A DNA stretch of 64,000 bases from IMG/VR virus record IMGVR_UViG_3300046810_000370, positions 1,891 to 65,890 of that record, one strand, 5' to 3'. Below the pieces are notes generated by a model. It was not told the origin of the DNA. It saw only the letters and a program-made list of their open reading frames with translations, and did no database searches. This stretch comes from a virus (lineage: Duplodnaviria; Caudoviricetes). This document shows, piece after piece, positions 3,704-45,585 of the stretch (its first letter is position 1; every line of letters starts with the position of its first letter). The translations under genes were made by a program, and so were the position numbers.

Positions 3704-5242
3704 CTAACCTTCCTGGTTGATGTAAGTTGGTACATCGACGATTTCGGCATCAATGAAACCGGTGGACGCCTCGATCATCCGGTCCGCCGGAACGGGCCTG
3801 TCGAGTGCCGTCATCTGCTCGCCGGCATCGCGTCCGAAGATACGGCTGATCATACCGGCCCCGCCACCATTCCCCTTAGCCTCCAGTTTCACGGAGAAGG
3901 AATCCTGGGCGAGTTCCGTGCTGACCTTCACCAGTTTCTGGAGACGGTCGATCTCGTTGGACAGGTTCGGATCCGCGTAGCCGCCGGTCATATCCTCGAC
4001 CATCTTCATGAAGAAGACCCGCTGCGACTGCATCTCGATGAGCGAATTCTGGAGCGCCTGCATCTGCGGCTTGGTCTTCACTTCGACCGGGATGTCGTAC
4101 GCGCAGTTGGCATTCTGGTCGAAGGCCGGGCACTTCGAGGACAGGAAGCAGGAGCCACAGGCCCGCATGGACTGACTGCGGACCGTGAGGAGGGGGATGT
4201 CCCGCTCCTTGTTCACACCGTCCTCGGGGTCGGTGTAGACCTCCTTCTCCTGCACCAGGCCGATGACCGGCAAGTTGGTACGCGAGCGGTCCCTCCGGAC
4301 GGCCGGTGTTGATCCGGAGTTGAGCGTTTTTCCGTCCTCCGTATCAACTGGAGTGCCACCCATTTGAGAGAAACTCGAAAGTACTCCCGAACCGGAAGTA
4401 GTAACTTCCTGGGCCTCCTGCGGCCGGTGCTCGTCGATCGAGCCGGCCAGTTGCTGCCACGACCAGATGGTGAAGCGCAGGACCTCGTCGTTCTCCCCGG
4501 CCTCGATACGGTCGGCGTCGAATCCCGCGTCGGTGAATAGCATGCGGTGCCGCTTTCGCGCCTGGTCCTTGTACTTCTTCGGATAGCGCTTCAATTCCCG
4601 GCCGGTCCACACAATGGTGTCACCGTACTGGGAAGGGGAAAGCCAGGAGGTCGACGCGACGCTGTCCCAGTTAACAGCAGCCATTTCCGTCGGCTTAGTC
4701 ATTGCGACGCCGTGGAGCAGAGTGCCGTATTTCCGGGTGATCTCGTTGAGTACCGGCGTGAGATTACGGCCATCGAGATCCGTTTGCGTCACACCGACTC
4801 GCTTATACCTCTGGGCAAGCCTGTCGAGTTCGTCGACTCCCCATTCCGAATGCCATATCGGAAGGAACTTGTCTTCCGGCAGGTCCTCGTAGAAGTCCTC
4901 GCGCCGGGCCTCTATCCATTCCCGTCCGAGAACGACAGCGTCGAACTCGGACACCATATGAAGCGAATCGATGTTCTGCTGGACGAAGGCCTCGTAATGG
5001 GCCGCGATGTCCTTCAGTTCACCGATCGAGTACTTGTCGTCGTCGGCCTTGTTGACCGTGTAGGCGCCGGAGTCCAGGAACACCTTCTGGCTGTCGAGGT
5101 AGTTGTCCTCGATCAGCCAGGGTCGGGTGAACTTGGTGCGCCGGCGCAGGCCCATGTACGAGAGGGAGACGGTCTCGACGCCTTCCTCGGCCAGCATCTT
5201 GCGCCAGCCGGGAATCTCGGATCCGCCGAGGAAGAGGTGCAC
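3704..5242 (-). CDS. TGT/DpdA-like TIM-barrel protein with C-terminal Cys cluster
   Basis: VFLDSGAY, LPIWH, LLHGVA motifs resemble queuine tRNA-ribosyltransferase-like folds; CGSC-x5-C-x8-C. Confidence 0.55.
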   Translation of the reverse strand: MHLFLGGSEIPGWRKMLAEEGVETVSLSYMGLRRRTKFTRPWLIEDNYLDSQKVFLDSGAYTVNKADDDKYSIGELKDIAAHYEAFVQQNIDSLHMVSEFDAVVLGREWIEARREDFYEDLPEDKFLPIWHSEWGVDELDRLAQRYKRVGVTQTDLDGRNLTPVLNEITRKYGTLLHGVAMTKPTEMAAVNWDSVASTSWLSPSQYGDTIVWTGRELKRYPKKYKDQARKRHRMLFTDAGFDADRIEAGENDEVLRFTIWSWQQLAGSIDEHRPQEAQEVTTSGSGVLSSFSQMGGTPVDTEDGKTLNSGSTPAVRRDRSRTNLPVIGLVQEKEVYTDPEDGVNKERDIPLLTVRSQSMRACGSCFLSSKCPAFDQNANCAYDIPVEVKTKPQMQALQNSLIEMQSQRVFFMKMVEDMTGGYADPNLSNEIDRLQKLVKVSTELAQDSFSVKLEAKGNGGGAGMISRIFGRDAGEQMTALDRPVPADRMIEASTGFIDAEIVDVPTYINQEG

Positions 5243-5269
5243 GGTTGGGTACTCCGAATCAGGTTGGGG

Positions 5270-6070
5270 TTACTTGCGGGTGGTCGGCTGATCGGCCACG
5301 TAGCCCGGCGTGTTGGCCCTACGCGTGGCCGCGATCGAGAAGAGTGCCAACTCGGGAGACTTACGCGCGGCGCGAGGGGCGCCGGGAGCGGGCGGGGCGT
5401 TCTTTGTCCTCTGCTTGGGGGCCGGCGTGGCTGCGCGGGCGAACTGCTGCGGGTTGGTGGCCGCACCCGGAACGGCGAACGTCTCCTGGACCGGGGCCTG
5501 CGGCTTCGAAGCGGTCGGCGCAGGGGCGCTCCCTGGCTTGGGCCTGGAGAAGCCCTTCTGCTCATGCTGCGGCCGACCGTCGGTGTAGTTGCCCAGCGGC
5601 TTGAACTGCCATCCGGGGCGGCCTTCATGATCCGTCCAGCCGTCTTCACGGGCGGAGGGGTCGCCGGAGTGCGGCTTCGAGCCGAACGCGGCGTGGAAGT
5701 CGTCCCAGGCCCCGCCGGACGGCTTGCTCTGCGCCTGGATGCCGTTCATCCGGGCGTTGAAGGTATGAAGCAGGTCGGAGGCTGCACCGGAGTGCTGGGC
5801 GTGCCAGTTGTCCAGATCGGACTGATGGTCCTCGCCGACGCGCTTGATCTCTTCGCGGGCGGCCGGGCTGGCCGTCGGCTGGGCGGCCTGCTGGCCCTGT
5901 CCCCGTGTGCGGATCTTGATGCGGGGGTTGGCCGGCTGCTGGCCGTTGCGGGCGTTCTCCAGGTCGCTGACGCGGTCCTCGACGGATCGGTTGGAGCCGG
6001 GGAACTGGAGGGGGTTGAGGTATCGGGCCTTGAACTGGGTTGCTATGGAGTGGAAGACCGTGGCGCTCAT
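5270..6070 (-). CDS. hypothetical low-complexity protein
   Basis: ATG 6070 overlaps upstream stop; Pro/Ala/Gln-rich. Confidence 0.6.
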   Translation of the reverse strand: MSATVFHSIATQFKARYLNPLQFPGSNRSVEDRVSDLENARNGQQPANPRIKIRTRGQGQQAAQPTASPAAREEIKRVGEDHQSDLDNWHAQHSGAASDLLHTFNARMNGIQAQSKPSGGAWDDFHAAFGSKPHSGDPSAREDGWTDHEGRPGWQFKPLGNYTDGRPQHEQKGFSRPKPGSAPAPTASKPQAPVQETFAVPGAATNPQQFARAATPAPKQRTKNAPPAPGAPRAARKSPELALFSIAATRRANTPGYVADQPTTRK

Positions 6071-6366
6071 GGTCGTGGGTCCTTTCGGACGAAGTAGAGG
6101 TAGCGGTGACCGGCCAGGAAACTGGCCAGGAAGCCGACGTTGATCAGCGACCGGGACGACGTGGTCGAGGTCAGGAACACGGCCGTGAAGGCCGTCACGT
6201 TGGCGCTGTAGACGAAGAGAGTTGCTGCGAGCCACCGCTCGCCGGCGCCGAGCTGGCGCCAGGCGGGGAGGGTCGCGCGGAGCAGCAGGCCCGCGAAGGC
6301 CGCTCCGGTGAGGACGGAGAGGGTGCGGGCGATGCCGATGAACAGGCCGTAGCCGTTGCTGATCAC
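6067..6366 (-). CDS. small membrane protein
   Basis: Three hydrophobic segments. Confidence 0.65.
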   Translation of the reverse strand: MISNGYGLFIGIARTLSVLTGAAFAGLLLRATLPAWRQLGAGERWLAATLFVYSANVTAFTAVFLTSTTSSRSLINVGFLASFLAGHRYLYFVRKDPRP

Positions 6367-6857
6367 AGGATCTCCATGTGTGGGCGCGGATCTTCTTCGC
6401 GTAGTGCTCGCTGCCTCTCGACCTCGTCCACCAGGGCTGACCAGGGGGTGACGCTCTCCTGGTAGTCGGGGCGGAAGCGCGGAGAGGAGTAGTTGGGGTG
6501 CAGGTAGTTCAGGACGCCGACACCGTTGGACATGACGTGTGCGGCGATCTCCGGGTCGGGCTCGACGAGCAGCTCGACCGCGCAGCCGGCCTGCCGTAGC
6601 CGGGAGATCTGCCGCATCCGGCGCTCGCGCGGGTCCTCGGGGTCGTGGATGTGCGCGGGGATGAGGTACGGGTGCTTGTTGAAGCCGTTGACGCGTAGCC
6701 AGTGCTTGACCGGCTCGGTGTCGGTGTTGTCGGTGATGAGGGCGACGTTGTAGGTCTCCATCAGGCCCCAGTACAGGCGCTGGCCCTGGTGGATGACGGC
6801 CTCGCCGACCTCCCTGGACAGCACGCCTTCAACGACGATGGCGACGGTTGCGGTCAT
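6363..6857 (-). CDS. HAD-fold-like hypothetical protein
   Basis: AIVVEGVL (degenerate DxDGxL), LITD, WL, LLVEPD layout. Confidence 0.5.
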   Translation of the reverse strand: MTATVAIVVEGVLSREVGEAVIHQGQRLYWGLMETYNVALITDNTDTEPVKHWLRVNGFNKHPYLIPAHIHDPEDPRERRMRQISRLRQAGCAVELLVEPDPEIAAHVMSNGVGVLNYLHPNYSSPRFRPDYQESVTPWSALVDEVERQRALREEDPRPHMEIL

Positions 6858-6863
6858 CGCCGA

Positions 6864-7718
6864 TCACCCGTGCCGGTGGTCGTGCAGGCCGTCCTTGTGC
6901 TCCTGCTCGTGGCGCCTGTAGTCCTGGTTCTGGTCGTGTGCCAGGAAGCGAGGGCTGACCCCGTGGGCTTGCATCAGGTGCTCGTGGATGGCGTCCAGGC
7001 CGGTGTTCTGCTTGATCTTCGGCTGGGCAGGGGTGTTCTTCTCGAACTGGTCGAGGTTCAGGACGTGCGCACCGACGTGGGTGTCTCCCCGGCCGCGCGC
7101 TTCGGCGAGGCGGTGATGTGCGTCGGCGACGTACGGCGTGCCGCCCTGGACGACGACCTTGACGTGCGGGTGGTCGGGGTCGAGCGGGCCGGTGATGTAC
7201 GAGTGGGAGCCGGTCTCGAACGCGGTCTGGCCGGTGTGCAGGACGGCGCTGGTGCTGATGCTCTGGAACTTGGCGTGCTTGTCCCAGAAGGCCTCGTTGC
7301 CGTGGCTCATCTGCGGGCCGTGCTTCTCGTACCACTTGTCGTCGATCTTGGTGTCGACGACGTTGCCGTGCCCGTCGAGGTGCCCGAACTGCTGCGGGTT
7401 GTGCGGCGGGCCCATGACCGTCTGCCCCTCGGACTGGGGGTAGTTGGTGCGCTCCTCGTCATGGATGAGCGTCTCGTCGCGGGCGGCGCCGAGCGAGGTG
7501 ACCTTGGTGAACATCCCGCCGCTGTGAGGCGTGGGATGCCCGATATGAAGCGCGCCGGGCTTGGCCTGGAGGTGCAGCGGCGTGTCCCGGGTCAGGTGGT
7601 ACTTCGCGCGGAGCGCGGTCTGCTTCTGGCCCTGGGCGGACACCTTGCTGCCCAGGGGGACGGGGAGCGCGGTCTGCTCGAACTGCGGGCCGGCCACGGC
7701 TGGCTTGGGTATGGCCAT
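6864..7718 (-). CDS. His-rich protein with ParB/Srx-like domain
   Basis: VKVVVQGGTPYVADAHHRLAEA resembles the ParB-N DGHHR motif. Confidence 0.55.
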   Translation of the reverse strand: MAIPKPAVAGPQFEQTALPVPLGSKVSAQGQKQTALRAKYHLTRDTPLHLQAKPGALHIGHPTPHSGGMFTKVTSLGAARDETLIHDEERTNYPQSEGQTVMGPPHNPQQFGHLDGHGNVVDTKIDDKWYEKHGPQMSHGNEAFWDKHAKFQSISTSAVLHTGQTAFETGSHSYITGPLDPDHPHVKVVVQGGTPYVADAHHRLAEARGRGDTHVGAHVLNLDQFEKNTPAQPKIKQNTGLDAIHEHLMQAHGVSPRFLAHDQNQDYRRHEQEHKDGLHDHRHG

Positions 7719-8710
7719 CACGGTCTCCTGTAGGGGGTGTTCCAAAGGGCTGCCGTGGCCAGTGCCGTGGCAGCGTCATCAAGGGGAGCCCCGTACAGAT
7801 CCGTTTCTTGCGCCTTGCGGGCCTCGGTGGCCGCTGTGGCCAGGGTGCTCAGGGCCTGGACGACCCCGGACTCCTTGTGTGCCTGCCAGCGGTAGTTGTA
7901 GTAGTCGCCGTAGCCCTCGCCGTTGTTGGAGAAGGCCAGGCGCCGGCTGAGGTGGATGTCGTCGAAGAGGGCCTTGGCCTGCTCGACGACGACGGACTGG
8001 GAGTCGATGGCGTTCTTCCAGGCCGGGCTGTTCTCGACGCTCTGGGCGGCCTGGCCGCGCAGCAGGCCGTAGCGGTTGACGAGCAGCTCGGCGTGCTTCT
8101 GCTCGGCGTCCACGGAGGTCTTCCACTCGGCCGGGTAGAGGCTGCGCGGGTCGTCCGGGAGGTTCGGCGGGGTGATATCCCAGCGGTCGGCGGTGAGGTT
8201 GTAGGCCGCATAGGGATGAATTGCCGCGATGCTGTGCGCGCTCGTACCGGGGTTCAGGTAGTAGGTGACCTCGTACGTCTGGCCGTGGAAGTTGGTATTT
8301 GCGGTGGTCGGCCAGACGGTTTGCCGGAGGTCTGAGTTCAGCAGGTCGGCGAATTCCGTCTCGGAGATCCCCTGGAATGTGGGGTTGTCCTCGTAGAACT
8401 TCGGGAAGTCGATTCCGAAGAGCACGTCGAGGTCGCCGTTGCCTCGGTCGCCGGCCCACTGGTAGGAGATGCCGGATCCAGCGAGCCAGGCCGCTGACCA
8501 GGCACGGGAGCCCTTGTAGCGGGCGTCGAGGTACTGGTTCAGGATGCCGAGGATGTGGTCGCGCACGTCAGGCTTGATGTGTCGCCTGTCGAAGATGTGC
8601 GGGTCCAGGGTGCGCTGCGGCGTGCTGAAATACCCGGAGGCCCCCGAATGAATGTCGGGCTGCGCTCCCTGGGTTACCGTGCGATTGAGGTAGAACTCGT
8701 ATCCGGCCAT
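7718..8710 (-). CDS. pol-beta superfamily nucleotidyltransferase
   Basis: LAGSG...GDLDVLF (GS-x-DxD) signature. Confidence 0.7.
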   Translation of the reverse strand: MAGYEFYLNRTVTQGAQPDIHSGASGYFSTPQRTLDPHIFDRRHIKPDVRDHILGILNQYLDARYKGSRAWSAAWLAGSGISYQWAGDRGNGDLDVLFGIDFPKFYEDNPTFQGISETEFADLLNSDLRQTVWPTTANTNFHGQTYEVTYYLNPGTSAHSIAAIHPYAAYNLTADRWDITPPNLPDDPRSLYPAEWKTSVDAEQKHAELLVNRYGLLRGQAAQSVENSPAWKNAIDSQSVVVEQAKALFDDIHLSRRLAFSNNGEGYGDYYNYRWQAHKESGVVQALSTLATAATEARKAQETDLYGAPLDDAATALATAALWNTPYRRP

Positions 8711-14637: not shown

Positions 14638-14940
14638 TCAGTGGACGAGGATCCGCAGAAGGATGGCGCTGATTTCACCGGCGTCCGGGGTGTTCACCGT
14701 GGTGAATCCGGGGCGGGTGTCGAGGACAATTCCTCGGGGCGCCACGAAACTGTTGGCGATGGCGATGGCCTTGACGGCCTGGTTTACCGCGCCGGCTCCG
14801 ATGGCTCGGAGGGTGACCCGCTTACCGTCGTAGACGGCGTGGGAAACGGCACTGGCGACGCTGGCTGCTGACGACGAAGACTTGACCCGGAGGATGACCT
14901 CGTTACTGGCACCTTCGTCGTTGTCGAACTGAACTCCCAT
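14638..14940 (-). CDS. spoVS: SpoVS-family protein
   Basis: LRVKSSS..ASVASAV...RAIGAGAVNQAVKAIAIA..F signature. Confidence 0.85.
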   Translation of the reverse strand: MGVQFDNDEGASNEVILRVKSSSSAASVASAVSHAVYDGKRVTLRAIGAGAVNQAVKAIAIANSFVAPRGIVLDTRPGFTTVNTPDAGEISAILLRILVH

Positions 14941-16620: not shown

Positions 16621-17324
16621 GGAGCCACCCTTCCGTTCTTGACGAATGCTTGGTAGGTGAGCGGGAAGTGCTCGGCGAACGCGACCTCCATGTCCACGGC
16701 GACCTGCTCGATCTCCTGCTGCGGGAAGGACCGGAACATGGCGGCGTCGTTCTGTGTCCGCAGGGACAGGAAGTGCATCAGGGAGCGAGGGTTCGCCGTG
16801 GCGTAGAAGGAGGTGTAGGTGCCGACCGGCAGGACGTTGCGGGCGACCTCGCGGGCGACGCCGGCCCCCAGCATCCGCCGGTACGCGGACCAGGCGACGC
16901 GGTAGACCTGCTCGTGCTCCCAGCGGGTGATGCCGTACTGCTCGTCGGTGCCCTGGACGAACTGGTACTCGCCGGGCTTGCCCTCCTGGACCAGCGGCCT
17001 CCACCGGTCGGGGACGAAGAAGGTGGGGTCCAGTTCCTTGTATCTGCCGCTGGTCTCGTTGTAACTCCAGCCGACACGGTGCCTCATGAACTCGCGGGCG
17101 ACGAAGATCGGTGCCTCGACGAGGAAGGACAACTGGCCGTGCTCGAAGGGGCTGCCGTGCCGGTGGCGCATGAGGTAGTTGATGAGACCGGAGGCCTCCC
17201 CCGACTCCGTCGCAGCGGAGCCGAGGGTGGACACACGGGCGGCCTGGCAGATCTTCGCGTCGGACCCGGCGAGGTTGTCGACGTCGAGCGTCGCGGAGAC
17301 GTCAGAGCGCTGATCGATGGTCAC
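16617..17324 (-). CDS. thyX: FAD-dependent thymidylate synthase
   Basis: HGSPFEH and RHR-x7-SGRY ThyX motif. Confidence 0.92.
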   Translation of the reverse strand: MTIDQRSDVSATLDVDNLAGSDAKICQAARVSTLGSAATESGEASGLINYLMRHRHGSPFEHGQLSFLVEAPIFVAREFMRHRVGWSYNETSGRYKELDPTFFVPDRWRPLVQEGKPGEYQFVQGTDEQYGITRWEHEQVYRVAWSAYRRMLGAGVAREVARNVLPVGTYTSFYATANPRSLMHFLSLRTQNDAAMFRSFPQQEIEQVAVDMEVAFAEHFPLTYQAFVKNGRVAP

Positions 17325-18019
17325 TTGGCGGCGGCCTTGCTCTTGGGCTGCTCGTCGTTCTTGATCGTGGCCTTGAAGTAGGTACCGGACGCGTCGTGGT
17401 AGGCGACGACACCCTCGGGGTCCTTGAAGCCGGGAGCGATGAAGGAGCCTTCCGACTCCAAGGTATGAAGCGCAATATTGACGGAGTAGTTCAGGTCCTG
17501 GCCGTTGGAGACGAGGATGACCGGGACCACGGTGACCTCCGGCGGGGCCGGGACGGCCTTGGGGAAGGTCGCCAGGTAGTTGTCGTTGACCTCGGTGTCG
17601 CGGATGTCGTACCAGCGGGACGTGTTGAAGAGCGCGAAGCGCTTCTCGTCGAGCCCGTATCCGGACTGGATGCCCTGGCCGAACCACTCGCCGTAGTGCT
17701 TGCCCTCGCCGAGCGCGGTGAGGGCGTCGGCGTTCTCCGACACCCACTGGGCGAAGCCGAAGTTGTCGTCCTCACGGGTGATCCAGCGGTTGCGGCTACC
17801 GGCGCGGACGATGAACGGGTCGTCGTTGACGTCGAAGGCCACGATGCCGTTCTTCTCGTCGTCGGTCAGGTTCTCGACGGCCTTCGTGTCGGCGACCTTG
17901 ATGATCTCGACCAGGCCGTTGGTGCCGTTCACCTTCTCGGTGAGGACCACCTTGCGGTGCAGTCGCGGGATGGGGCGGAACTTCGGGTAGGTGGGCGTCT
18001 CGGTGACCGTGGCAGTCAT
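17321..18019 (-). CDS. RNA ligase (Rnl2-like nucleotidyltransferase domain)
   Basis: TEKVNGTN motif I, SRNR, YGEWFG, FALFN, EGVV, FK. Confidence 0.8.
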   Translation of the reverse strand: MTATVTETPTYPKFRPIPRLHRKVVLTEKVNGTNGLVEIIKVADTKAVENLTDDEKNGIVAFDVNDDPFIVRAGSRNRWITREDDNFGFAQWVSENADALTALGEGKHYGEWFGQGIQSGYGLDEKRFALFNTSRWYDIRDTEVNDNYLATFPKAVPAPPEVTVVPVILVSNGQDLNYSVNIALHTLESEGSFIAPGFKDPEGVVAYHDASGTYFKATIKNDEQPKSKAAAK

Positions 18020-20216: not shown

Positions 20217-20554
20217 CACGGCAGTATCTCCTCGGCGTCCATTTCCGGATGCGCCAAGGCATGAAGCGCCAGGAAAGTCTCTTCGGACATCGTGATCCAG
20301 TTTCTTCCACCGGACATCTGAGTCCCGAAGAGCATTTCCCTGCCATCGATCAGGGCCTGCTTCTCTGCGGTAACCAGTTCCTTTTCCTTGAGCGAGTACG
20401 ATCCCTTACTGGTGACCTTGTACTCGATCGAGTAATCCGGAGTGCGTACGTCGTTCTTCCGCACCCAACCGTTGCCGCTACCCGCGTTCACCGTCCCGCC
20501 GAGGAGTTCCGCTCCCCGCCGTTCCTGCTTCTGGCTCTTCTTCAACATGTCCAT
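20213..20554 (-). CDS. Holliday junction resolvase-like PD-(D/E)xK nuclease
   Basis: SQKQERR...GSG...KNDV...IEYK. Confidence 0.65.
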   Translation of the reverse strand: MDMLKKSQKQERRGAELLGGTVNAGSGNGWVRKNDVRTPDYSIEYKVTSKGSYSLKEKELVTAEKQALIDGREMLFGTQMSGGRNWITMSEETFLALHALAHPEMDAEEILPW

Positions 20555-20687
20555 AGGAGGTCTCCAGAAGCGTGGCGAGAAGACCGAACTTCTCGTGGGA
20601 CCGGTCCTGGCGCCGGGAATACCGGACGCCAAGGACCAGGATGTAAACGGCTGCTATTGCCAGCAGCGCGGAAAGCACGGCCACCAT
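20478..20687 (-). CDS. small membrane protein
   Basis: N-terminal TM helix; TGATG overlap with recA stop. Confidence 0.5.
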   Translation of the reverse strand: MVAVLSALLAIAAVYILVLGVRYSRRQDRSHEKFGLLATLLETSYGHVEEEPEAGTAGSGTPRRDGERG

Positions 20688-21871
20688 CAGGCGGCCAAAG
20701 TATGAAGCCCGTCGGCCTCTTCCGGCTTGGGCCGCCGGCTGACCTTCTTGGTGCCCTCGTTCTCGGCGGCCGTAAGGTCGTCCTCGGAAATGGAACGCTC
20801 GTCGGCGTGCTGAGACGCGGCGAGGACCTTCTCGTAGAGGAATTCCTGGAGGTCCAGATCCTCTCGGATGGCAGCGAGGGTGTTCTCCTTGCTGTGCCAG
20901 CGAAGGACAGGCTTTCCCTTGTCGTCGTACTCGCCGTTGTCGACCTCGTAGTAAGCGCCCTTGCGCTTGATGACGTCGAAGAGGATTCCCATGATCATGA
21001 TTTCCTTCGTGGTGTCGAAATCACCACGGGCGAAATTCAGATAGGGGGCCGAGCGGAAGTAGGCGTCGATGGTGGCGACCTGCTGCGGTGCGGCCGACTT
21101 GTTCTTGATGGTCTTCACCTTGATGACCTGGCCGACGTTCACCTTGCCCTTTCCGGGCCGGGCTTCCTGAATCCACTCGTCGCGCCGGACTTCCACCCGG
21201 GTGTAGAACGCGTAGTTCTTTGCATTTCCACCGGGCGTCGTGGTCGGCGTGCCGTGCGGGGAGAACTTGCCGATGGCGTCGCGGTACTGGTTGATGACGA
21301 TGCCGAGCATGGGGCGGTCGTCGGGGTCGGTCATCGAGCGCTTCGTCGCGGCGCCGGACTTGCGGAAGAACTTGCCGGTGAGGCGGGCGCCGAGGGCCAT
21401 GGTGGCCTCGTCCATGTCCTTCTCGGCTTCCTCGTCCGGGATGAGCGCCGGGTAGGAGTCGAGGACGATCATGTCGACCGAGCGGGACGTCGCGAAGTCG
21501 AGCATGGTCTGGTAGGCGAACTCCATGGCCTGGGTGGGGACGACGATGACGCGGTCGTTGTCGACGCCCAGCGCCTCGGCCTGGTCGGTGTCGTAGTGCT
21601 CGGCCGCGACCCACAGGCAGGTGAAGTTCGGGTCCTTCTTCTGGTTGGCGGCCAGCGTCTTGTAGACGATGAAGGTCTTGCCGTGGGACTCGCGGCCGAT
21701 GACCTCGACCCACTGGTTGCCCGGCCAGCCACCGCCGAGGGCGATGTCGAGGGAGAGGGAGCCGGAGGTGAAGCGCTTGGCGACGCGCATCTCGGAGGCG
21801 AAGCAGACGGCGCCGGGGTGCGCCTTGTTGATCTTGGCGAGGAGTGCGAGGGCTTCCTTGTTGACGCTCAA
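20687..21871 (-). CDS. recA: RecA-like recombinase
   Basis: TSGSLSLDIALGGG, GRESHGKT Walker A, IVLDS, INQYR, TTPGGNA. Confidence 0.93.
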   Translation of the reverse strand: MSVNKEALALLAKINKAHPGAVCFASEMRVAKRFTSGSLSLDIALGGGWPGNQWVEVIGRESHGKTFIVYKTLAANQKKDPNFTCLWVAAEHYDTDQAEALGVDNDRVIVVPTQAMEFAYQTMLDFATSRSVDMIVLDSYPALIPDEEAEKDMDEATMALGARLTGKFFRKSGAATKRSMTDPDDRPMLGIVINQYRDAIGKFSPHGTPTTTPGGNAKNYAFYTRVEVRRDEWIQEARPGKGKVNVGQVIKVKTIKNKSAAPQQVATIDAYFRSAPYLNFARGDFDTTKEIMIMGILFDVIKRKGAYYEVDNGEYDDKGKPVLRWHSKENTLAAIREDLDLQEFLYEKVLAASQHADERSISEDDLTAAENEGTKKVSRRPKPEEADGLHTLAA

Positions 21872-21900
21872 CAGGGGCCCCCGTAGGTATGAAGTCGCAT
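21868..21900 (-). CDS. 10-codon leader ORF MRLHTYGGPC coupled to recA
   Basis: AGGAG RBS, ATG, in-frame CTT-CAT-ACC, TGA overlapping recA TTG start. Confidence 0.6.
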   Translation of the reverse strand: MRLHTYGGPC

Positions 21901-22020
21901 GTGTGGTGTTACTCCTGATCCGATAGCGCGGAAGCGATAACGAAGAACCGGTAGTCCCTATACCATAACGGCGAAGGAACTACCGGTCCACTCATGTATC
22001 AACTAGTTGATGAAGATCTT

Positions 22021-22404
22021 TTAGCGGATTTCCCGAGGCCACGGGGGCAGCGGCTTCTTCCCGTTGCCGTCCCAGGGAGCCATCCACTGCTGCTCGATGA
22101 GATGGGTGACGAGGTCCCGGCCGTCAGGCAGGGCCACGGTCGCGAGGTACCGGCCGCCGTACTTGTCGGGGTCGATGTCACGTCCCTGCTTGTGCGAGCG
22201 AAGGACGACACGACTGCCCAGAGGAAGGAGCGCGGACAGGTTGGCCCCCGCTTCCTTGCCGCCCGGGTCTTTCAACTCCCGAGCGTTGCCGCCATGCAGA
22301 CGGACGTGAAAGTCGTGCTTCCAGGTGTCGAGACCCAGGTCCAGGTCGACGGTGATGGTGTCGCCGTCATGGACGCCGGTGACGATGGCGCCGTACTCGT
22401 ACAT
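22021..22404 (-). CDS. thermonuclease (SNase-like)
   Basis: VHDGDTI, VRLHGGNAREL, DKYGGRYLA. Confidence 0.85.
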   Translation of the reverse strand: MYEYGAIVTGVHDGDTITVDLDLGLDTWKHDFHVRLHGGNARELKDPGGKEAGANLSALLPLGSRVVLRSHKQGRDIDPDKYGGRYLATVALPDGRDLVTHLIEQQWMAPWDGNGKKPLPPWPREIR

Positions 22405-28173: not shown

Positions 28174-28412
28174 CAGTTGTTCTCCTGCTGGTAGAGATGG
28201 ATGTACGACTTGTCCTCGGCGGTGTTCAGCCGGGACTCTTCGACGTCGGCCGCCAGCGCGGTGGCCAGGTACTCGGTGGCGAAGTTTTCGAGGGTGTCGG
28301 CGCTCTGGGCACCGGGCAGTTCCTCGGAGTCGACGGTGATCTCGGCACCGAACTCGACCCACTCGAAGTTGCCCATGCTGACGTGGTGCTTGGCACTCCG
28401 GGTGATCTTCAC
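28173..28412 (-). CDS. hypothetical protein
   Basis: GTG start with overlaps on both sides. Confidence 0.6.
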   Translation of the reverse strand: MKITRSAKHHVSMGNFEWVEFGAEITVDSEELPGAQSADTLENFATEYLATALAADVEESRLNTAEDKSYIHLYQQENN

Positions 28413-28870
28413 TGCTCGGCCAGCCTCTTGAAGAGGTCGAGGACGCGGGCGCTGAAGTTGGTGCTCTTGATGGGCTTCTGGTGCGAGACCAGGACGCCTT
28501 CCTCGTGCGCGATGCGGACCACGCCTTCGATCTGCTCGCGGGTGTAGAGGCGGCGCCGGCCGCGTACGTCGTCGTCCCGGCCCGGGGACTGGTAGGTGCT
28601 CTTGGGGATGACTCCCTCGCGCTCCCACTTCCGGATGGTCACCGGCTGCCGGCCGAGGGCCTGGGCGAACTGGCCGACGGTGAAGAACTCGGTCTCCACT
28701 CCGGCCACGACGTACTTACGGGGCTTGGCGTCCCAGTCGGCCGCCGACTTGGCGGCCTTGGTATGAAGCCCGTTGCGACCCTGGTGCCGCACGATCGGCT
28801 TGGTGGATCCGGGGTAGAACTCCTCGCCGAGGTCGGCGAAGTCCTGCTCGATGCTGGCCAGCGTGGTCAT
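28409..28870 (-). CDS. MerR-like HTH DNA-binding protein
   Basis: FTVGQFAQALGRQPVTIRKWEREGVIP...RRLYT. Confidence 0.8.
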   Translation of the reverse strand: MTTLASIEQDFADLGEEFYPGSTKPIVRHQGRNGLHTKAAKSAADWDAKPRKYVVAGVETEFFTVGQFAQALGRQPVTIRKWEREGVIPKSTYQSPGRDDDVRGRRRLYTREQIEGVVRIAHEEGVLVSHQKPIKSTNFSARVLDLFKRLAEQ

Positions 28871-29457: not shown

Positions 29458-29835
29458 TCAGTACGAGATTCCGTCAACCTGCGAGGGAACCGCCTGACCC
29501 AGGCGAGTGGTGCGACGCTTCGCGTAGCGCTGTGCGTCGGCGTCCGTCTGGTCCTTGCGGACGGACGTCTCGGCGACGTCCTGGTAGACGGTGACCACAC
29601 GGCGCTCGACCGGGTCGATGACGGCTACGAGGTCCCCTCGCACGTGGCGAACCTGTCCAGGAACGCGGCCCGAGGGGTAAGTATGAAGCGGCTTGTTTGC
29701 CGCGAGGAGCACGTCTTCGCTGGTCCAGCCCTTGGCGGTGGCCTGCTGCTGTGCGTGGTAGGTGAGCCGGAACTCCGGCGCGTCAGTCGCGTTGGCAGCC
29801 CAGGCGATGCCCAGGCATTCGGCGATGGTGGCCAT
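29458..29835 (-). CDS. DUF4258-like small protein (RelE/BrnT-type RNase fold candidate)
   Basis: FRLTYHAQQQATAKGWTSEDV...P...GDLVAVID...VVTVY pattern; AGGAGG RBS. Confidence 0.6.
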   Translation of the reverse strand: MATIAECLGIAWAANATDAPEFRLTYHAQQQATAKGWTSEDVLLAANKPLHTYPSGRVPGQVRHVRGDLVAVIDPVERRVVTVYQDVAETSVRKDQTDADAQRYAKRRTTRLGQAVPSQVDGISY

Positions 29836-32073: not shown

Positions 32074-32260
32074 GTTCGGCCTCCGGCTGGGAGGTCATGT
32101 GGAAGCCCTTGCACGTCGGGCACGGGTAGACGCGGCACGGGACCTTCTCGCGGTCGGCGTCGTGCTTGCGCTGGATGCGCTGCATGTCGAGGACGGCAGC
32201 GATCTCGTCTCGGAATCGGCGCTTGCCGCAGGTATGAAGTCGTCGCTTGTTGTAGGGCAT
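32060..32260 (-). CDS. small zinc-binding protein
   Basis: CGKRRF...RVYPCPTCKGFHMT. Confidence 0.7.
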   Translation of the reverse strand: MPYNKRRLHTCGKRRFRDEIAAVLDMQRIQRKHDADREKVPCRVYPCPTCKGFHMTSQPEAEHAGA

Positions 32261-33219
32261 CAGAACCTCGCTATGACGGATGAGTAGGCGTTGCGGACGG
32301 CGTTCTTGAGGGCGTCGGCCCCCATCTCGCCGGGGTCCTTGTAGGGCGCGGTGCCGTAGTCCAGGAACTTCAGAGCCAGGCCTCGGCCGGTCCACTCCTG
32401 GCGCAGGCGCTTGCAGGTCTCGGCGCCCGCGTTGTCGTTGTCGAGCGCGACGATGAGGGTGTCGAAGTGGTCGCGGACCAGGGACATCTGGACGTCGGAG
32501 ACTCCGGCGCCGAACGAGGCGAGGCCGGCGGGGAACCCGGCGGCGCGCAGGCGGGCCACGTCCAGAGGGGACTCGACCAGGATGGCCGTGTCGCCCTCGT
32601 AGGTATGAAGCCCGAAGAGCGTCTTCGACTTGGCCATGCCCGGCGGCCGGTTGCGGAAGTAGCGGGCGTTCTTCTCCTGCCAGCCCCACAGCATCCCGGT
32701 GTCGGGGTCGCGGACGGGGATGATCCACATCTCCCGCTCGGCGTCCCACAGGATTCCGCAGGCCTCCGCGTCCTCCGGCATGAAGAAGCGCTTGGAGCAC
32801 TCCTCCAGCGGCGGGGTGACGTACAGGGCCAGCGACGCCTCGTTGATCTGCTTGGTCGTGTCGACCGTCTTGGGGTCAGCCTTCTTCGCCAGGAACTTCT
32901 TGACCCGCTCGATCCCGCCGCGCTGGCGGACCCAGGCGACCGCGTCGCCGTACGGGAGGTCGAGCATGTCCTTCACGAGGACGACGAACGGGCCCTGGTA
33001 CCGGCAGGAGAAGCAGTTGAAATATCCGGCGTCGTAGTTTATGGAAAAGGATGGGTGCTTGTCTTTCTTTCCGGTCCGCGCCTCGTGCATCGGGCACGGC
33101 ATGTGAATCTCGTCGCCGCTGACCTTGTAGTCCAGGCCAATCTCGTCCAGGCAGGCCGTCACGTTGCCGGGAATCGGCGTTCCGACGGCGTCCCAGCCTT
33201 TCGCTCTCGCGGTCCTCAT
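32260..33219 (-). CDS. DNA primase (CHC2 zinc finger + TOPRIM)
   Basis: CPMH...FNCFSC; LVESPLD; LDNDNAG. Confidence 0.9.
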   Translation of the reverse strand: MRTARAKGWDAVGTPIPGNVTACLDEIGLDYKVSGDEIHMPCPMHEARTGKKDKHPSFSINYDAGYFNCFSCRYQGPFVVLVKDMLDLPYGDAVAWVRQRGGIERVKKFLAKKADPKTVDTTKQINEASLALYVTPPLEECSKRFFMPEDAEACGILWDAEREMWIIPVRDPDTGMLWGWQEKNARYFRNRPPGMAKSKTLFGLHTYEGDTAILVESPLDVARLRAAGFPAGLASFGAGVSDVQMSLVRDHFDTLIVALDNDNAGAETCKRLRQEWTGRGLALKFLDYGTAPYKDPGEMGADALKNAVRNAYSSVIARF

Positions 33220-36160: not shown

Positions 36161-37141
36161 TCAGGACCAGTAGTCCTCATTGAACCGGTTGTCCTCCATC
36201 ACGCTGGCGGCCTTGCCCAGTCGCTGGGCCAGCAGGCCACGGGCTGCGAGGAAGTCCTTCCAGGCGACCACGTTGTCCGAGCGCTGCCAGGAGACCGACC
36301 AGTACGTGATGATCATCTGGCGGATCTCGTCGCGCCCGGTGCCCTGTGCCATCCACCGGCCGAAGTTGCCGGTGAGCGCAGAGAGGTTGGCGGCTCCCGG
36401 CACCGGATGGCCGACGTCCTTGGCCCGCTGGTCGAAGAACAAGGCCAGCGTCTCTGAAGGCCGCACGGAGCGTGCCTTACGACTTCGCTGGACCGGAGGG
36501 GCCAGGTCATCATCCGAGGCCGGCACGCGGGCAGCCAGGGACTCTCCCGGATCTTCCGCGTCGAGAGCCTGGGACACCACGTACGCCGGGTCGAGTTCCC
36601 GTTCCGCCTGTTCCCTCTCCAGGGCTTCCTGCTTCCGGGACTTCTTACGGCCGCCACGCTTGGGGGCTGCAACCGCTCCCCAGCCCTTGGAACCCGGCTT
36701 GGGAGGGTCTTCCCCCAGGGCGTCGCCCTGGAGATACGAAGTATCTCTATTACTTCTAGGTTGGTTATTGGGGTTGGGTGAAAACTTCGACACAGGGGGT
36801 GCAGAATCTGCACTGCTGAGGGGTGCAGATTCTGCACTCGCCGGGGCGGAAGGCCACTCCACGACCGGCTTGATGCGCCGGACCACGGACTTGTAGCGCA
36901 GGGCCTCCACGGGGGCCTCGTCGTCCGGTACGTGCTCGACGATCCCCTGCTCCTCCAGGGCCGCCAGCGACGAGTACGCCTGGCGCTTGGAGACACGGGC
37001 CTTGCCCGCGATGGTGTCGGCCGACTCCCAGCACATGCGGTGGGTGTCGTTGGCCGCGTCCGCCAGCGCGAGCAGTACGAGCCTTGTAGCCAGTCGGGTA
37101 TCCGAGTGCGTGAACACCTCGGACATGATCAGGATGCTCAC
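36161..37141 (-). CDS. replication initiator-like protein with N-terminal winged HTH
   Basis: RLVLLALADAAND...CWES..TIA.KARVSKR..Y..L..LEE.G; upstream of loader and helicase. Confidence 0.7.
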   Translation of the reverse strand: MSILIMSEVFTHSDTRLATRLVLLALADAANDTHRMCWESADTIAGKARVSKRQAYSSLAALEEQGIVEHVPDDEAPVEALRYKSVVRRIKPVVEWPSAPASAESAPLSSADSAPPVSKFSPNPNNQPRSNRDTSYLQGDALGEDPPKPGSKGWGAVAAPKRGGRKKSRKQEALEREQAERELDPAYVVSQALDAEDPGESLAARVPASDDDLAPPVQRSRKARSVRPSETLALFFDQRAKDVGHPVPGAANLSALTGNFGRWMAQGTGRDEIRQMIITYWSVSWQRSDNVVAWKDFLAARGLLAQRLGKAASVMEDNRFNEDYWS

Positions 37142-37185
37142 TCGGCGACTCCGAGGAAGCGATAAGTATGAAGCGATATCGCCAT
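37138..37185 (-). CDS. 15-codon leader ORF MAISLHTYRFLGVAE coupled to initiator gene
   Basis: AGGAG RBS, ATG, in-frame CTT-CAT-ACT, TGA overlapping GTG start. Confidence 0.6.
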   Translation of the reverse strand: MAISLHTYRFLGVAE

Positions 37186-37236
37186 GGTAGGTTGACTCCT
37201 ATCTCGGGGTTTGTGGTGGGCCTCGGGGTGTGGTGG

Positions 37237-38918: not shown

Positions 38919-39458
38919 TCAGATCGACCTCGTACCGAGCCCGTTGACCTTCGGCAGCACGATCGTGGAGGCCGCAGGCGGGCTGACGCGGTTCTCGACG
39001 ACACGCTTCTCCATGACCCGCCGCACGGCGTCCTCCACACTCCGGGAGATCTGCTCGACGACCTCCTCGCCCAGCAGCGTGCCGCCCGCCGGGGTCTCGG
39101 TGACCTGCGTCTCCTCTACGTACCGGGCGATGGTGCCCGGCGAGATATGAAGCCGGCTCTCCGTCTCGGTTACGAGGGTGTTCTGGAGCGTGGCGAACCA
39201 CGCGTACTTCTTGAGCAGCGAGTGGTAGAAGGTCGTGCCGGTCACCCATGCCAGGAAGGCGGCCACGACAGCCGGCGCCCAGTAGAAGTGCTGCGGCTCG
39301 GCCTGGTGGACCGCCCAGAAGCCTGTGGCGACCGAGAGGGCGGCGTGCGCGATCCCCTTGACCGTGGGGTTGGTGGACGGCCGGGTGAACAGGGCGACGA
39401 TGGCGGGCAGGACCAGGCCGACGACGAGGGATGCCGCGCCGGCGTAGTTGCTGAACAT
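38919..39458 (-). CDS. holin-like membrane protein
   Basis: Three N-terminal TM helices; follows tail genes. Confidence 0.55.
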   Translation of the reverse strand: MFSNYAGAASLVVGLVLPAIVALFTRPSTNPTVKGIAHAALSVATGFWAVHQAEPQHFYWAPAVVAAFLAWVTGTTFYHSLLKKYAWFATLQNTLVTETESRLHISPGTIARYVEETQVTETPAGGTLLGEEVVEQISRSVEDAVRRVMEKRVVENRVSPPAASTIVLPKVNGLGTRSI

Positions 39459-39480
39459 GCTTGTCCTTACGGGTTCGTGG

Positions 39481-40698
39481 TTACTGGGTCGGGAGTACTG
39501 CATATTGGGGCACCGCTGAAGTGATTCCCAAAGGCGTATTCTCGTCGAGTAGCGTGCGGATGAGGTAACTCCGCTCGACCCGGTTCTCGTAGAAGTACGA
39601 GCGCGTGAGGTTCGCGGTCCCGGCGGTTTCCCAGAGGTAATCCGCGCCCATCGAACCGTCGAAGTAATCCCGTACCGAGGTGCCTTCCTCGACCAGGATC
39701 CCGTCGGCCCAGAAGATGCTGGGCTGGCCCGCAGTCATCGTCGACCGGGAAACGTTGAACCCCATCCACACCGAGGAGACCTTGGCGTCGAACGTCACCC
39801 AGACAGTGCGCCACTGAGGGTTCTTCGGATCCGGCTGGGAGGTACGGAAGGTGGTGCGATCGACCATCGTGGAGTAGCTGGCGCCGGTCCACGCGTATAC
39901 GTCACCGCAAGACTGAGCGATGGCCAGCCGTGCGCTCATGGTGTACCGGCGCCCCGGGATGAGTCCCGTGATCTGGAAGTTGAACCCTCCGTCGGTGGAC
40001 CCGGCGGCCGGTGAGGTGACCTTGCAGGAGCCGGTCCCGGTCCAGCAGAAGGGGTCGGCGGCCACGGTCGCGCTGTTGATGGCAACGGCTCCCGTGATAC
40101 CGCTCTCGAAGTTCGGGTTCGTCGCGTAGTTGAGCCGGGTCGGCTTGATGAGGACCTGGATCTCCCGCGCGTTCTGGTACAGGCTCGGGCCGGCCGCTAC
40201 CAGTGGCAGCGGTTCGAACTGCACCGCATCCAAAATCTGGTGTTTGGTCGCCGACATGCTCGCGAACTTGAACCCGACGGCCGCGTACGCAGCGCGCTTC
40301 CAGGCGTAGCCACCCCCGGACACCGGATAGTCCACCGGCCCGGTGAACGCGGCGTACGGACGGCTGTAGGAGCCGGCGACAGCGGACTTGAGCGCGCCGG
40401 ATGTGGCGCCGATCCACGCCATGGCCGGGTCGGTGCCGCCGACCGGGTAGTGGGAGAAGTCCTTGAACGCGGAGGCCGGCGCCCGGACTCCGGCTGACAG
40501 CAGACCCTGGATGGTGAACTGGCCGGCCAGTGGAGACAGCGGCTTGGGGCGCGGGATCTTCGCGAGGATGACGCCGTCGAAGGAGACCGTGCCGCCGAGC
40601 TGCGGCGTGTAGGTCCGGTACTTGCCCATGACGATGGTGCCGGTGACCGCAACGGACGGGGTGTACTCGTAGTCGTTGCGGATGATGATGTCCGTCAT
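39481..40698 (-). CDS. tail protein with carbohydrate-binding-like domain
   Basis: NYATNPNFE, YFDGS; position in baseplate cluster. Confidence 0.65.
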   Translation of the reverse strand: MTDIIIRNDYEYTPSVAVTGTIVMGKYRTYTPQLGGTVSFDGVILAKIPRPKPLSPLAGQFTIQGLLSAGVRAPASAFKDFSHYPVGGTDPAMAWIGATSGALKSAVAGSYSRPYAAFTGPVDYPVSGGGYAWKRAAYAAVGFKFASMSATKHQILDAVQFEPLPLVAAGPSLYQNAREIQVLIKPTRLNYATNPNFESGITGAVAINSATVAADPFCWTGTGSCKVTSPAAGSTDGGFNFQITGLIPGRRYTMSARLAIAQSCGDVYAWTGASYSTMVDRTTFRTSQPDPKNPQWRTVWVTFDAKVSSVWMGFNVSRSTMTAGQPSIFWADGILVEEGTSVRDYFDGSMGADYLWETAGTANLTRSYFYENRVERSYLIRTLLDENTPLGITSAVPQYAVLPTQ

Positions 40699-42680
40699 CA
40701 GGTGACCGCCATTCCGACCTTGGTGGCTGTGCTGAACGTCGAGTTAGTAAGGGTGAGCACCTGAGTTCCGTTCCTCTGCACGGTGATGTTGCTTCCGACG
40801 AACGTGACCGTGAGCCGGTCCCCGTCCTGGCAGGTCTGGGAGTAGGCGTAGGTGGCGACCCAGGCTCCGGCCTCGATGCGGTGCAGACCGCTCCGCCCCG
40901 CGCGCCAGTAGTTGGAGGCGTCCTGGAGCCGGAAGACGGCGCCCTGCTTGAGGGTGTTGCCGGGGTTGGTCAGGAACGTCACGGCGACTGTGCCGTCCGC
41001 GTGGCCGGGCATGGTGGCGACGGATGCCGTGGCTCCTACGGGGTAGGCCGCCCCGCCCGCGTAGCCGCTGGAGGTCCACTGGCCGGTCGTTTCCGTCCAG
41101 GAGGCAGCGCCGATGTCCGAGGTGCGGGTCGTCCAGTCGCTCCAGCCCTGCGTGAAGGAGTCCAGCACGTTGTACGCCGGAACCTGGTCGCTGTAGAGCG
41201 TGGTCACCAGGGCGCCGTGCTCGTCGTAGTACTCGACGAACGGGGACACCACGACCTGCTCGCCGGAGTAGGCCTGCGCGTAGCCGGACAGGCACATCTG
41301 CACGCGATCGTCGTACCCGAGCGGAGTCCACTGGGTGTTCGCGGTCGGTGTGGTCGGCGGTGCGACGTTGAGGCTGGCGGTGAGCGCCTGGTAGACGCGG
41401 CCGTGGTAGATGATGACGTCGCCCGGCTGGTAGTAGGCGCCGTCGTCCCAGTTCTGCCAGGTGTACGGGACCGGGATGCCATAGAGCACAGGCTGCTGCG
41501 GGTCCATGGTCGCCTGGCCGGCGACACGACCGACGGAGCGCACACCCATGGTGGCCACGGACCCACCGGAGTTGGTGTTGCGCACCCACAGCGCGTTGCC
41601 GGCCTTGTCGTTGGGGTCGGTCGGGTTCTGCACGCCGATGCCCACCAGGACGCCGCCCGTGCCCGGGGAGACGCCGGCGGTGAAGGAGATCTCCTCCCAC
41701 CCGGCGACGCGGCCGTTGGCGTCGACCAGCGTGGAGTCCGTGCCGTACTGCACGGCCGTCCAGTACGCGTTGGACGCCGTGGTGCCCGTCGGGGCCTGCG
41801 AGGATCCGTAGGCGCCGCTGCTGCCTGCCTGGTAGAGGTAAGCACCGAACTCGATCTTGTCCCCGGCCGCGTAGTTCACGCCCGCGTCCCACTGCGGGTA
41901 GCTGGGGTGGTCGAAGTCGGCCTGGTCGTCGGAGAGCATGAGGTTGCGGCCGATGGCGAGGTCGGCGTCGTACCCGGTCGTCTCGGAGATGACGGAGCGG
42001 ATCTGCTCCAGGGTGCCCTTCTGCCGCCCGAGCGTCGCGGCGTCGCGCACGCGCTGCCGGAAGAGGTAGGCGGGCGTGGACGCCTCGAAGTCGATACCGA
42101 ACTGCGTGGCCAACTGGGCGATGTTGTCGTAGCGGGTACGCATCGCGTCGTTGGTGTAGCGGTTGGAGTCGTAGTACGACTTGACCATGTCGAAGCCGAA
42201 CCCGAAGACCGACAGGAACGGCGCCAGGTACGGGTTGATGGTGTTGGAGTCGTCGGTGGCGTTGTTGCCCGGGGCGACGTCGACCTTGTAGTGCTCGGGG
42301 ACGAGGGAGTACAGCAGGTCGGTGTACCCGCTGTCCTTGGGCATGAGGCAGGCGACGGTGCCGGCCCGAGACCACTGGCCGGAGGCGGAGATGAAGATCG
42401 TGTAGTACAGCCAGTGCCCGCCGGCGACACCTGTGTCCGCGTAGTTGGTCGCGGTGTGCGTCTGGTCGAGGAGGATCTCCCCGTCGGTCTCGTTGACGGC
42501 CCAGCCGTACCGGTTGCGCAGCAGGCGCAGGGTGTCCCACGAGCCGGCGGGGGCGGTCCAGTCCAGGAGCACGGTCGAGTAGTCCACGGGCGTGGCTGTG
42601 AACGGGCTGACGTCGAAGTCCGGGTGGACATCGGTCCCGTACTTCGTCAGCCCGTAGAGGGAAGCGCCGTAAGTGCCCAT
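40698..42680 (-). CDS. baseplate wedge/tail protein with CBM-like repeats
   Basis: RQKGTLEQI wedge motif; W...Y..GD repeats. Confidence 0.7.
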   Translation of the reverse strand: MGTYGASLYGLTKYGTDVHPDFDVSPFTATPVDYSTVLLDWTAPAGSWDTLRLLRNRYGWAVNETDGEILLDQTHTATNYADTGVAGGHWLYYTIFISASGQWSRAGTVACLMPKDSGYTDLLYSLVPEHYKVDVAPGNNATDDSNTINPYLAPFLSVFGFGFDMVKSYYDSNRYTNDAMRTRYDNIAQLATQFGIDFEASTPAYLFRQRVRDAATLGRQKGTLEQIRSVISETTGYDADLAIGRNLMLSDDQADFDHPSYPQWDAGVNYAAGDKIEFGAYLYQAGSSGAYGSSQAPTGTTASNAYWTAVQYGTDSTLVDANGRVAGWEEISFTAGVSPGTGGVLVGIGVQNPTDPNDKAGNALWVRNTNSGGSVATMGVRSVGRVAGQATMDPQQPVLYGIPVPYTWQNWDDGAYYQPGDVIIYHGRVYQALTASLNVAPPTTPTANTQWTPLGYDDRVQMCLSGYAQAYSGEQVVVSPFVEYYDEHGALVTTLYSDQVPAYNVLDSFTQGWSDWTTRTSDIGAASWTETTGQWTSSGYAGGAAYPVGATASVATMPGHADGTVAVTFLTNPGNTLKQGAVFRLQDASNYWRAGRSGLHRIEAGAWVATYAYSQTCQDGDRLTVTFVGSNITVQRNGTQVLTLTNSTFSTATKVGMAVT

Positions 42681-42687
42681 GGGTGGC

Positions 42688-45219: not shown

Positions 45220-45269
45220 GCTTGCATTCTCCCAGGAATGCCTACCCAGATTGCAGTTCCAGTTTTAGG

Positions 45270-45569: not shown

Positions 45570-45585
45570 TAAAGGGTCGTCCTCA

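Follow-up and report, generated by a model that had tools for sequence, protein, structure and literature searches.

What does a ten-codon open reading frame (ORF) do directly in front of the recA gene of a soil phage, and why does it carry a short word that recurs throughout the genome? The question is raised by a 64,000-nt stretch of viral DNA (Duplodnaviria; Caudoviricetes; positions 1,891 to 65,890 of IMG/VR record IMGVR_UViG_3300046810_000370), called the window here. The window is 65% G+C and part of a single 65,890-bp viral contig. Its recA gene (20687..21871, minus strand) encodes a 394-residue protein that matches the Pfam RecA family PF00154 with 144.4 bits (cut-off 27) and E = 5.8e-42. 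The leader ORF upstream of it, MRLHTYGGPC, is real and conserved. Comparison with related phages indicates that it is very probably translated, and we consider it probable that the 33 nt are translated as a true leader cistron and gate recA.

The leader is present letter for letter as the initial annotation had described it; that annotation had named no strand, and the strand is minus. An AGGAG Shine-Dalgarno (SD) sequence (21912..21916, minus) is followed by a CA-rich spacer of 11 nt (21901..21911, minus) and by the mini-ORF itself (21868..21900, minus), which has an ATG, nine sense codons and a TGA. It reads ATG CGA CTT CAT ACC TAC GGG GGC CCC TGT TGA from 21900 to 21868. Codons 3–5, CTT CAT ACC (21886..21894, minus), form one of the 28 exact copies of the word CTTCATAC in the window. 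The leader runs into recA at a TTGA junction (21868..21871, minus). The overlap of the leader stop with the recA start had been claimed earlier and is a true 4-nt stop/start overlap, with three bases common to the leader TGA and the recA TTG (21871-21869). This TTG is the sole possible recA start, because it is the first ATG, GTG or TTG codon 3' of the upstream in-frame stop and precedes the conserved N-terminal helix. It also aligns with the GTG, ATG or TTG starts of outgroup RecA proteins that lack the motif. The best ribosome-binding site had been assigned to the mini-ORF, but this ranking does not hold. The anti-SD duplex energy is −8.1 kcal/mol for the leader AGGAG (11-nt spacing) and −8.6 kcal/mol for the GGGGG run that serves recA (6-nt spacing). 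The advantage of the leader over the recA start would lie in its accessibility and its ATG and not in a stronger SD. Contigs of four DNA runs cover 21866-21899 without base change or indel, G/C run included, and the sole difference seen in them is a 2-nt deletion variant in the spacer at 21900. The leader sequence is not an assembly error.

A RecA-linked search gave 51 related viral loci, which we divide into 15 A-type loci, defined by the presence of CTTCATAC, 18 loci of a sister lineage with CTTAATAC in its place (B-type) and 18 outgroup loci. The initial annotation had suggested looking for the upstream ORF in related phages, and it is indeed kept in 15 of the 51 loci, in seven sequence versions that all have ten codons. 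These are MRLHTYGGPC, a form of it ending in PR, MTLHTCGGRL, MTLHTCGGCP, MRLHTYGGNL, MTLHTYGGPC (with a GTG start) and MRLHTCGGTL. The start is ATG with that single GTG exception, and every version finishes as NTGA on a TTG or GTG recA start, the junction being TTGA or GTGA in 7/7 versions. A 6-nt deletion in L020 leaves the relative frame intact. The SD is AGGAG in A-type and GGAAG, GGAAC or AGGAG in B-type relatives, and the spacer varies from 8 to 12 nt among A-type relatives.

The 18 B-type loci show a different arrangement. The region is 8 nt shorter and the homologous ATG is fused in frame to recA (MALNTCAGGPDKEAL), with no alternative start codon between this ATG and recA. The ATG must initiate translation there because it is the only start available to RecA, and on this comparison it is a working start. 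The B-type counterpart of the leader word position is CTTAATACC in the 18 loci, and each B-type locus carries 5–15 copies of CTTAATAC and no CTTCATAC. Neither word is enriched in the 18 outgroup loci, where RecA starts at the A-type TTG position and no other enriched 8-mer was found. The simplest history suggested by these alignments is a separate leader that was fused later in B-type, and such a fusion is workable only if the leader ATG was already in use.

The word extends far beyond the leader. There are 28 copies of CTTCATAC in the window, all on the minus strand, against 0.49 expected, a number reached in 0/100 shuffles. Five further copies read CTTCATAT, and all 33 copies of CTTCATAY lie on the gene strand. 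By the G+C content of third codon positions (GC3), the word reads as Leu-His-Thr/Ile in the coding frame at every site whose frame can be resolved. Twenty-eight of the 33 copies are in frame in 27 of 75 ORF candidates, three are intergenic and lie in leaders (21894, 37173 and 52077), the copy at 32239 is in frame by GC3, and the copy at 3443 is not resolved by GC3. Within a stricter 66-ORF set, Leu-His-Thr occurs 22 times and is spelled CTTCATAC plus C or T in 21 of these, and Leu-Asn-Thr occurs only twice; the tripeptide is therefore created by selection. The other two frames offer seven [SPTA]-Ser-Tyr and three Phe-Ile-C sites that could be converted to the word by mostly synonymous change, and none of them is used. 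CTT and CAT are used at 4.2 and 3.3 per 1000 codons, more than half of them inside the word. TCA and ATA are about as frequent as CTT and CAT, so codon rarity is not the cause of the frame lock. A purine precedes the word in 93% of copies, with G at +11 in 68% and at +12 in 71%. Spacing along the window is uneven, with a 10-kb gap from 39152 to 49347.

A second copy had been reported in the last six codons of recA. It is there: CTT CAT ACT (20699..20707, minus) stands within GAC GGG CTT CAT ACT TTG GCC GCC TGA, its word starting at 20707, six codons before the stop. Its position is common to A-type and B-type relatives. The predicted hairpin behind it covers the recA TGA and the ATG of the next gene, and the segment after the word folds with −19.6 kcal/mol.

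Two further interpretations of the word were examined and dropped. A guide-RNA reading finds 0 occurrences of the word complement on gene-strand transcripts, and the single 7-mer match (56563) coincides with an ordinary gene start. A frameshift with an early stop is not favored either, since the median distances to the next +1 and −1 stops are 55 and 75 codons after the word and 35 and 94 codons in controls. No paper on the motif was found in the literature, full-text matches to the words being primer lists and unrelated papers. A distant blastn comparison of the region with annotated phages gave four short matches of 72–74% identity to three Streptomyces phages, all inside recA.

It had also been proposed that even an intergenic copy is read in the same frame, and the other two leaders agree with this. 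Both are conserved, ATG-started mini-ORFs. The one with the 37173 copy has 15 codons and precedes the gene for an HTH_36 replication protein, and the one with the 52077 copy has 10 codons and follows a tape-measure-like gene. The 37173 leader occurs in 15 versions in 25 loci, with 15 codons and once 13 (an in-frame 6-nt deletion), and the 52077 leader in 10 versions in 12 loci, with 9, 10 or 28 codons. The ATG, the frame and the stop on the next start are all kept across relatives, despite indels of 6 nt and more. The distance from the C of CTT to the next start is 32 nt in the 37173 leader, 23 nt in the 52077 leader and 23 nt in recA. In both leaders (37138-37200 and 52052-52088, minus) a predicted hairpin likewise holds an SD-like run and the start of the next gene.

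Word orientation follows expression and not a fixed DNA strand. Exactly one opposite-strand copy is present in each of eight genomes; five A-type genomes have 31–39 gene-strand copies plus one opposite copy (32–40 in total), and a B-type genome has 37 plus one. In 4/4 genomes examined, the opposite copy is in frame, 6–13 codons into a small reverse-oriented gene. The copies in this gene of about 45–60 residues are located at L204:~1544, L205 (reverse complement):~1588, L206:~1475 and L207:~1481. The strand flip weighs against replication, packaging or Chi-like readings.

Comparison of A-type with B-type shows how sites come and go. Forty-one orthologous site groups were defined, of which 32 have relatives and nine are window-only; sites are common to A and B in 21 of the 32. 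A-type phages carry the A word where B-type reads CTG CAC ACC or CTG CAC CAG, and B-type phages carry the B word where A-type reads CTG AAC ACC. Lineage-specific gains fell on pre-existing L-H or L-N-T codons. Of the 179 loci centred on recA or an anchor, 48 are A-type throughout, 81 are B-type throughout, and only three have one copy of the other word. The three are L020, L021 and L142, A-type genomes with a single B-type word. In L020 and L021 it sits at the 3' end of recA, in a segment that matches a B-type phage exactly; this suggests recent A/B recombination with an imported site that was not converted. An outgroup-rooted polA tree, built from 20 of 44 rows after exclusion of near-duplicates and short rows, places A-type on the basal branches and requires two changes. 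Decayed forms are seen as well. The window holds CTTCATGCC at 20252-20266 (minus), where most A-type relatives read CTTCATACC and B-type relatives CTTAATACC, and L005 has a second decayed form, CTTCGTACC, within a reductase gene.

The word is followed by RNA folding potential. The +9..+39 segment has a mean folding energy of −11.8 kcal/mol, compared with −6.2 kcal/mol at random positions (resample p < 0.0002), and the same comparison finds no excess folding in the upstream flank. Pairing begins at offset 2 in 18 of 33 copies versus 11.5% of controls. In a B-type genome the corresponding values are −10.7 versus −6.3 kcal/mol, with offset 2 in 11/32. Stem sequences are unrelated between copies. 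At the ribonucleotide reductase site the stem is stronger where the word is present (−16.3 vs −8.1). Counted from the C of CTT, the foot of the stem is 11 nt away, and this is where the ribosomal mRNA helicase acts while CUU occupies the P site and CAU the A site.

In the recA leader the predicted stem pairs a 5' arm CGGGGGC (21877..21883, minus), which begins 2 nt after the word, spans leader codons 6–8 and holds the only SD-like run of recA, with a 3' arm GCCCTCG (21847..21853, minus) within recA codons 7–9. It would enclose the leader stop, the recA TTG and the G-run. The stem is predicted in every A-type and B-type version, and 84% of the cells in its arms pair across 18 aligned sequences, compared with 40–62% when the partner is slid. 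A small inner hairpin over the TTG (TGTTGA/TCAACA) was rejected, not being kept in 97%-identical relatives. A larger fold of 21830-22030, which includes a stem-loop upstream of the leader, has −69.9 kcal/mol and z = −4.56.

These elements suggest the following sequence of events. A ribosome would initiate at the leader ATG via the leader's own AGGAG and read one copy of a phage-wide element, R-CTT-CAT-ACY followed by 2 nt and a hairpin. The hairpin, formed by leader codons 6–8 and recA codons 7–9, would enclose the leader stop, the recA TTG and the G-run until the ribosome unfolds the stem on its way to termination at the TGA overlapping the TTG. The recA start would then be opened, or the ribosome handed over, and RecA synthesis would be coupled to leader translation. 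Such coupling is the best reading because the predicted hairpin buries the recA G-run and TTG. The geometry of the leader fits a coupling of recA to a word-reading ribosome. Sequence, conservation, the fusion in the sister lineage and the genome-wide statistics of word and hairpin are observed; translation of the leader, stem formation and the coupling itself we infer.

With the helicase so placed, the word and its hairpin would be an in-frame elongation checkpoint read by the ribosome. As a tentative extension, to which we assign a little less than an even chance, the phage group may use an undescribed translation-level control code, with about 32–40 word-and-hairpin checkpoints per genome and a lineage-specific trans-acting reader. 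The codons would be CUU-CAU-ACY (CUU-AAU-ACY for the sister lineage), read in frame during elongation, and CUU would occupy the P site as the hairpin meets the ribosomal helicase. A trans-acting reader would set the one-letter difference, C or A at the fourth letter of the word; it may be phage-encoded and linked to the decoding of His or Asn codons, and a phage tRNA-Asn(GUU) and a long-arm tRNA with a GUG anticodon in the sub-lineage of the window can be cited here. The leader mini-genes would exist only to place intergenic copies under a ribosome, and recA, the replication initiator and tail genes would thereby be controlled.

Candidates for such a reader were sought as fixed A/B differences over 71 window ORFs, with matches below 70% ORF coverage dropped and at least three loci required per type. 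Few fixed amino-acid differences emerge, and many are the motif's own His-to-Asn change. A DnaG-type primase (32263-33219, minus) has nine, the most of the 71 ORFs; none is the motif His-to-Asn change, and six fall within the zinc-ribbon domain or directly behind it. The B-type primases group in a single clade (100% support), whose stem of 0.24 is the longest seen. Several other genes split A from B on one branch, so common descent may be all that the primase signal reflects. The 71 ORFs yielded no repressor with A/B-specific changes, a MerR-type protein having only I26L and the motif His.

No tRNA genes were found within the window; complete relatives encode tRNA-Pro(TGG), tRNA-Phe(GAA), tRNA-Leu(CAA) and tRNA-Asn(GTT). 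An 86-nt tRNA with a GTG (His) anticodon has a long variable arm, a 3-bp D stem like that of the neighboring tRNA-Leu(CAA), and an encoded G-1 opposite C73. It is located at L052:331-416 (minus) and also occurs in L053, L054, L061, L069 and L072. Three A-type genomes near the window have it, but the B-type genome and two other A-type genomes, complete or nearly so, lack it, and it is therefore not required. A DUF4258/RelE-like candidate effector (29458-29835) has no Pfam match at E <= 0.01, and a "TGT/DpdA-like" cluster of six ORFs (3707-8710) has none at E <= 0.001.

Several results weigh against coupling and a ribosomal reader. The recA G-run matches the leader AGGAG in anti-SD pairing and is better spaced, so that an independent RecA start is possible. 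The fused B-type lineage makes RecA without a separate leader, which is thus dispensable for RecA. The recA stem has 0 compensatory pairs and its 3' arm lies in conserved coding sequence, which by itself could account for the pairing; because the pairs do not co-vary, the stem rests on the genome-wide hairpin statistic and not on the alignment. Three recently gained sites have no accompanying hairpin. Antisense folds are equally stable (−13.0 vs −12.8), so RNA is not distinguishable from DNA by stability. The frame lock of the B word, unlike that of the A word, is trivial, since other frames give TAA or TTA-ATA, and the frame-lock argument thus depends on A-type being ancestral; this ancestry comes from one polA tree, and the RecA tree does not settle the polarity of the A/B switch. 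The primase, by leading in fixed A/B differences, hints at a DNA-level reader. No RNA run containing the stretch was found among the 24 runs listed. The earlier proposal that recA is coupled to a ribosome passing the motif stands in part: leader conservation, the fused B-type ATG, the two other intergenic leaders and the predicted stem speak for it, and the equal duplex energies, the missing compensatory changes and the B-type RecA made without a separate leader speak against it.

Readings in which the ribosome is not the reader have to account for the same facts. The word could be a DNA-level, transcription-polar site for a phage repressor, similar to a stoperator, with the leader ORFs as secondary relay cistrons across an inserted element. 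The 32–40 copies per complete genome are oriented with transcription, the single reverse gene included, and one relative is classed as a provirus. A single letter separates the lineages at all sites, comparable to the differences in stoperator consensus between heteroimmune phages in the accessible text of PMC6550527 and PMC9283540. A repressor site nevertheless seems unlikely to us. The gene strand carries all 33 copies, and every copy except that at 3443 reads in one frame, with cheap sites in other frames left unused; unrelated stems recur at a fixed 2-nt offset, which a DNA-binding repressor would not need; ATG-started ORFs are kept around every intergenic copy; and no A/B-specific repressor was found among the 71 window ORFs compared. 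The word and hairpin could also be a single-stranded-DNA priming signal for the phage DnaG-type primase, with frame and leaders as side effects. In priming of phage G4, a trinucleotide stands next to a hairpin, and some DnaG primases favor TTA or CTA. The nine fixed differences of the primase, six of them at the zinc-ribbon, and the long stem of the B-type clade also speak for this reading. We regard a priming signal as quite improbable, since the word flips strand with the reverse gene in 4/4 genomes, as a lagging-strand signal should not, and its density tracks genes and not distance (the 10-kb gap 39152-49347). Frame lock and leaders would be unexplained, and ancestry may suffice for the primase, as other genes also split A from B.

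Two more alternatives concern the mini-ORF itself. If its frame were open by chance and the leader untranslated, the word would act as RNA only, for example as a site for a nuclease or RNA-binding protein by a stabilizing hairpin. In RNA that is rich in G+C (65%), the word does stand out as an AU-rich single-stranded island with a hairpin behind it. Start, length, frame and stop/start overlap are, however, kept in 7, 15 and 10 versions of three leaders, the copies are frame-locked, and 21650-22150 has no Rfam match at E <= 1; an RNA-only role is very improbable on this evidence. The mini-ORF could instead be the relic of a recA that once started at the ATG and was split by the 8-nt indel, with RecA made by −1 frameshifting in the GGGGGCCCC run, or split by a sequencing error. 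B-type is fused in frame, and G GGC CCC in the window matches X XXY YYZ. The heptamer is found in WIN-like and L028 versions, and in L006 as G GGC CCC CGT, but it is absent from four other A-type versions (G GGC CGC, TGC, AAC or ACC). Every A-type version also has TTG or GTG at the outgroup RecA start position, contigs of four runs show no indel in the run, and fifteen independent viral contigs agree. We give a relic or frameshift hardly any weight. A leader cistron that couples recA to the reading of the word is the interpretation we retain.

The surroundings of the leader contain a few additional features. A strong stem-loop of 14–15 bp followed by a T-rich run (21945..21989, minus) separates the upstream gene from the leader; it may be terminator-like or a processing or stability element. 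A simple terminator scan did not call it on the minus strand. Its 3' arm, containing CTACCGGTT, is kept in both A-type and B-type relatives. As an enriched element the repeat CTACCGGTT was rejected: 17 matches compare with 9.9 expected, and 17 were reached in 5/100 shuffles. Two short direct repeats (TTAYCG-like) between this stem-loop and the SD are variable among relatives. A promoter scan of 21700-22200 found none, and comparison of 21650-22150 with Rfam gave no family at E <= 1. Elsewhere in the window, a 100-residue SpoVS-family protein (14641-14940, minus; PF04232, E = 1.4e-21) has no A/B-fixed differences. An RNA ligase-family gene (17324-18019, minus; PF09414) and the MerR-type HTH gene (28412-28870, minus; PF13411) have one in-frame word each.

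A short coupled leader ORF is ordinary in itself, and the recA leader is unusual as the carrier of a genome-wide, one-frame signal. The sister lineage has altered the word by a single letter at every site, which provides a natural specificity switch across dozens of sites. The leader offers a test bed of about 90 nt, with SD, ATG, word, hairpin and TTGA junction, in which a ribosome can be compared with a DNA-binding or RNA-binding protein as reader. Should the ribosome prove to be the reader, phages of G+C-rich soil bacteria would be using a new form of gene control.

The recA leader shares features with several known systems. Termination-reinitiation coupling uses overlapping stop and start codons, such as the ATGA or TGATG junctions of bacterial operons. 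The 4-nt TTGA overlap, the weak downstream start and the upstream cistron with its own SD are of this type, but here the cistron has ten codons and no plausible protein function, carries a genome-wide word and is fused in the sister lineage. In the secM-secA, ermC and cat leaders, a translating or stalled ribosome unmasks a downstream start. Here too a short upstream ORF precedes a predicted stem that hides the SD-like run and start of recA, and a leader ribosome would be needed to melt it. Unlike those leaders, this one has no known arrest peptide or inducer, and the word and hairpin also occur deep in about 28 ordinary genes with no start to unmask.

Bacterial SECIS elements, the CUU-UGA-C site of prfB and dnaX are in-frame codon signals with a spaced hairpin. 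The word is likewise an in-frame codon string with a stem-loop at a fixed short distance in coding sequence, and CUU would occupy the P site. It differs in having neither a stop codon nor an X XXY YYZ heptamer, and the +1 and −1 stops are no nearer than in controls. Unlike SECIS, no dedicated tRNA always accompanies the word, and the gain of sites by synonymous change argues for ordinary decoding. Rare-codon gating is known from bldA and TTA codons in Streptomyces, and the rare CTT and CAT codons could similarly tie the translation of many genes to one decoding component. The present signal is a three-codon word with a hairpin and not a single codon, it is found in phage, and sister lineages spell it with one letter changed. 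In Cluster A mycobacteriophages, the immunity repressor binds 13-bp DNA sites called stoperators, according to the accessible text of PMC6550527 and PMC9283540. Like them, the word forms dozens of asymmetric, transcription-oriented sites per genome with a lineage-specific consensus. Unlike stoperators as that text presents them, the word has 8–9 nt, is locked to one reading frame, precedes a hairpin at a constant distance and, where intergenic, lies inside an ORF.

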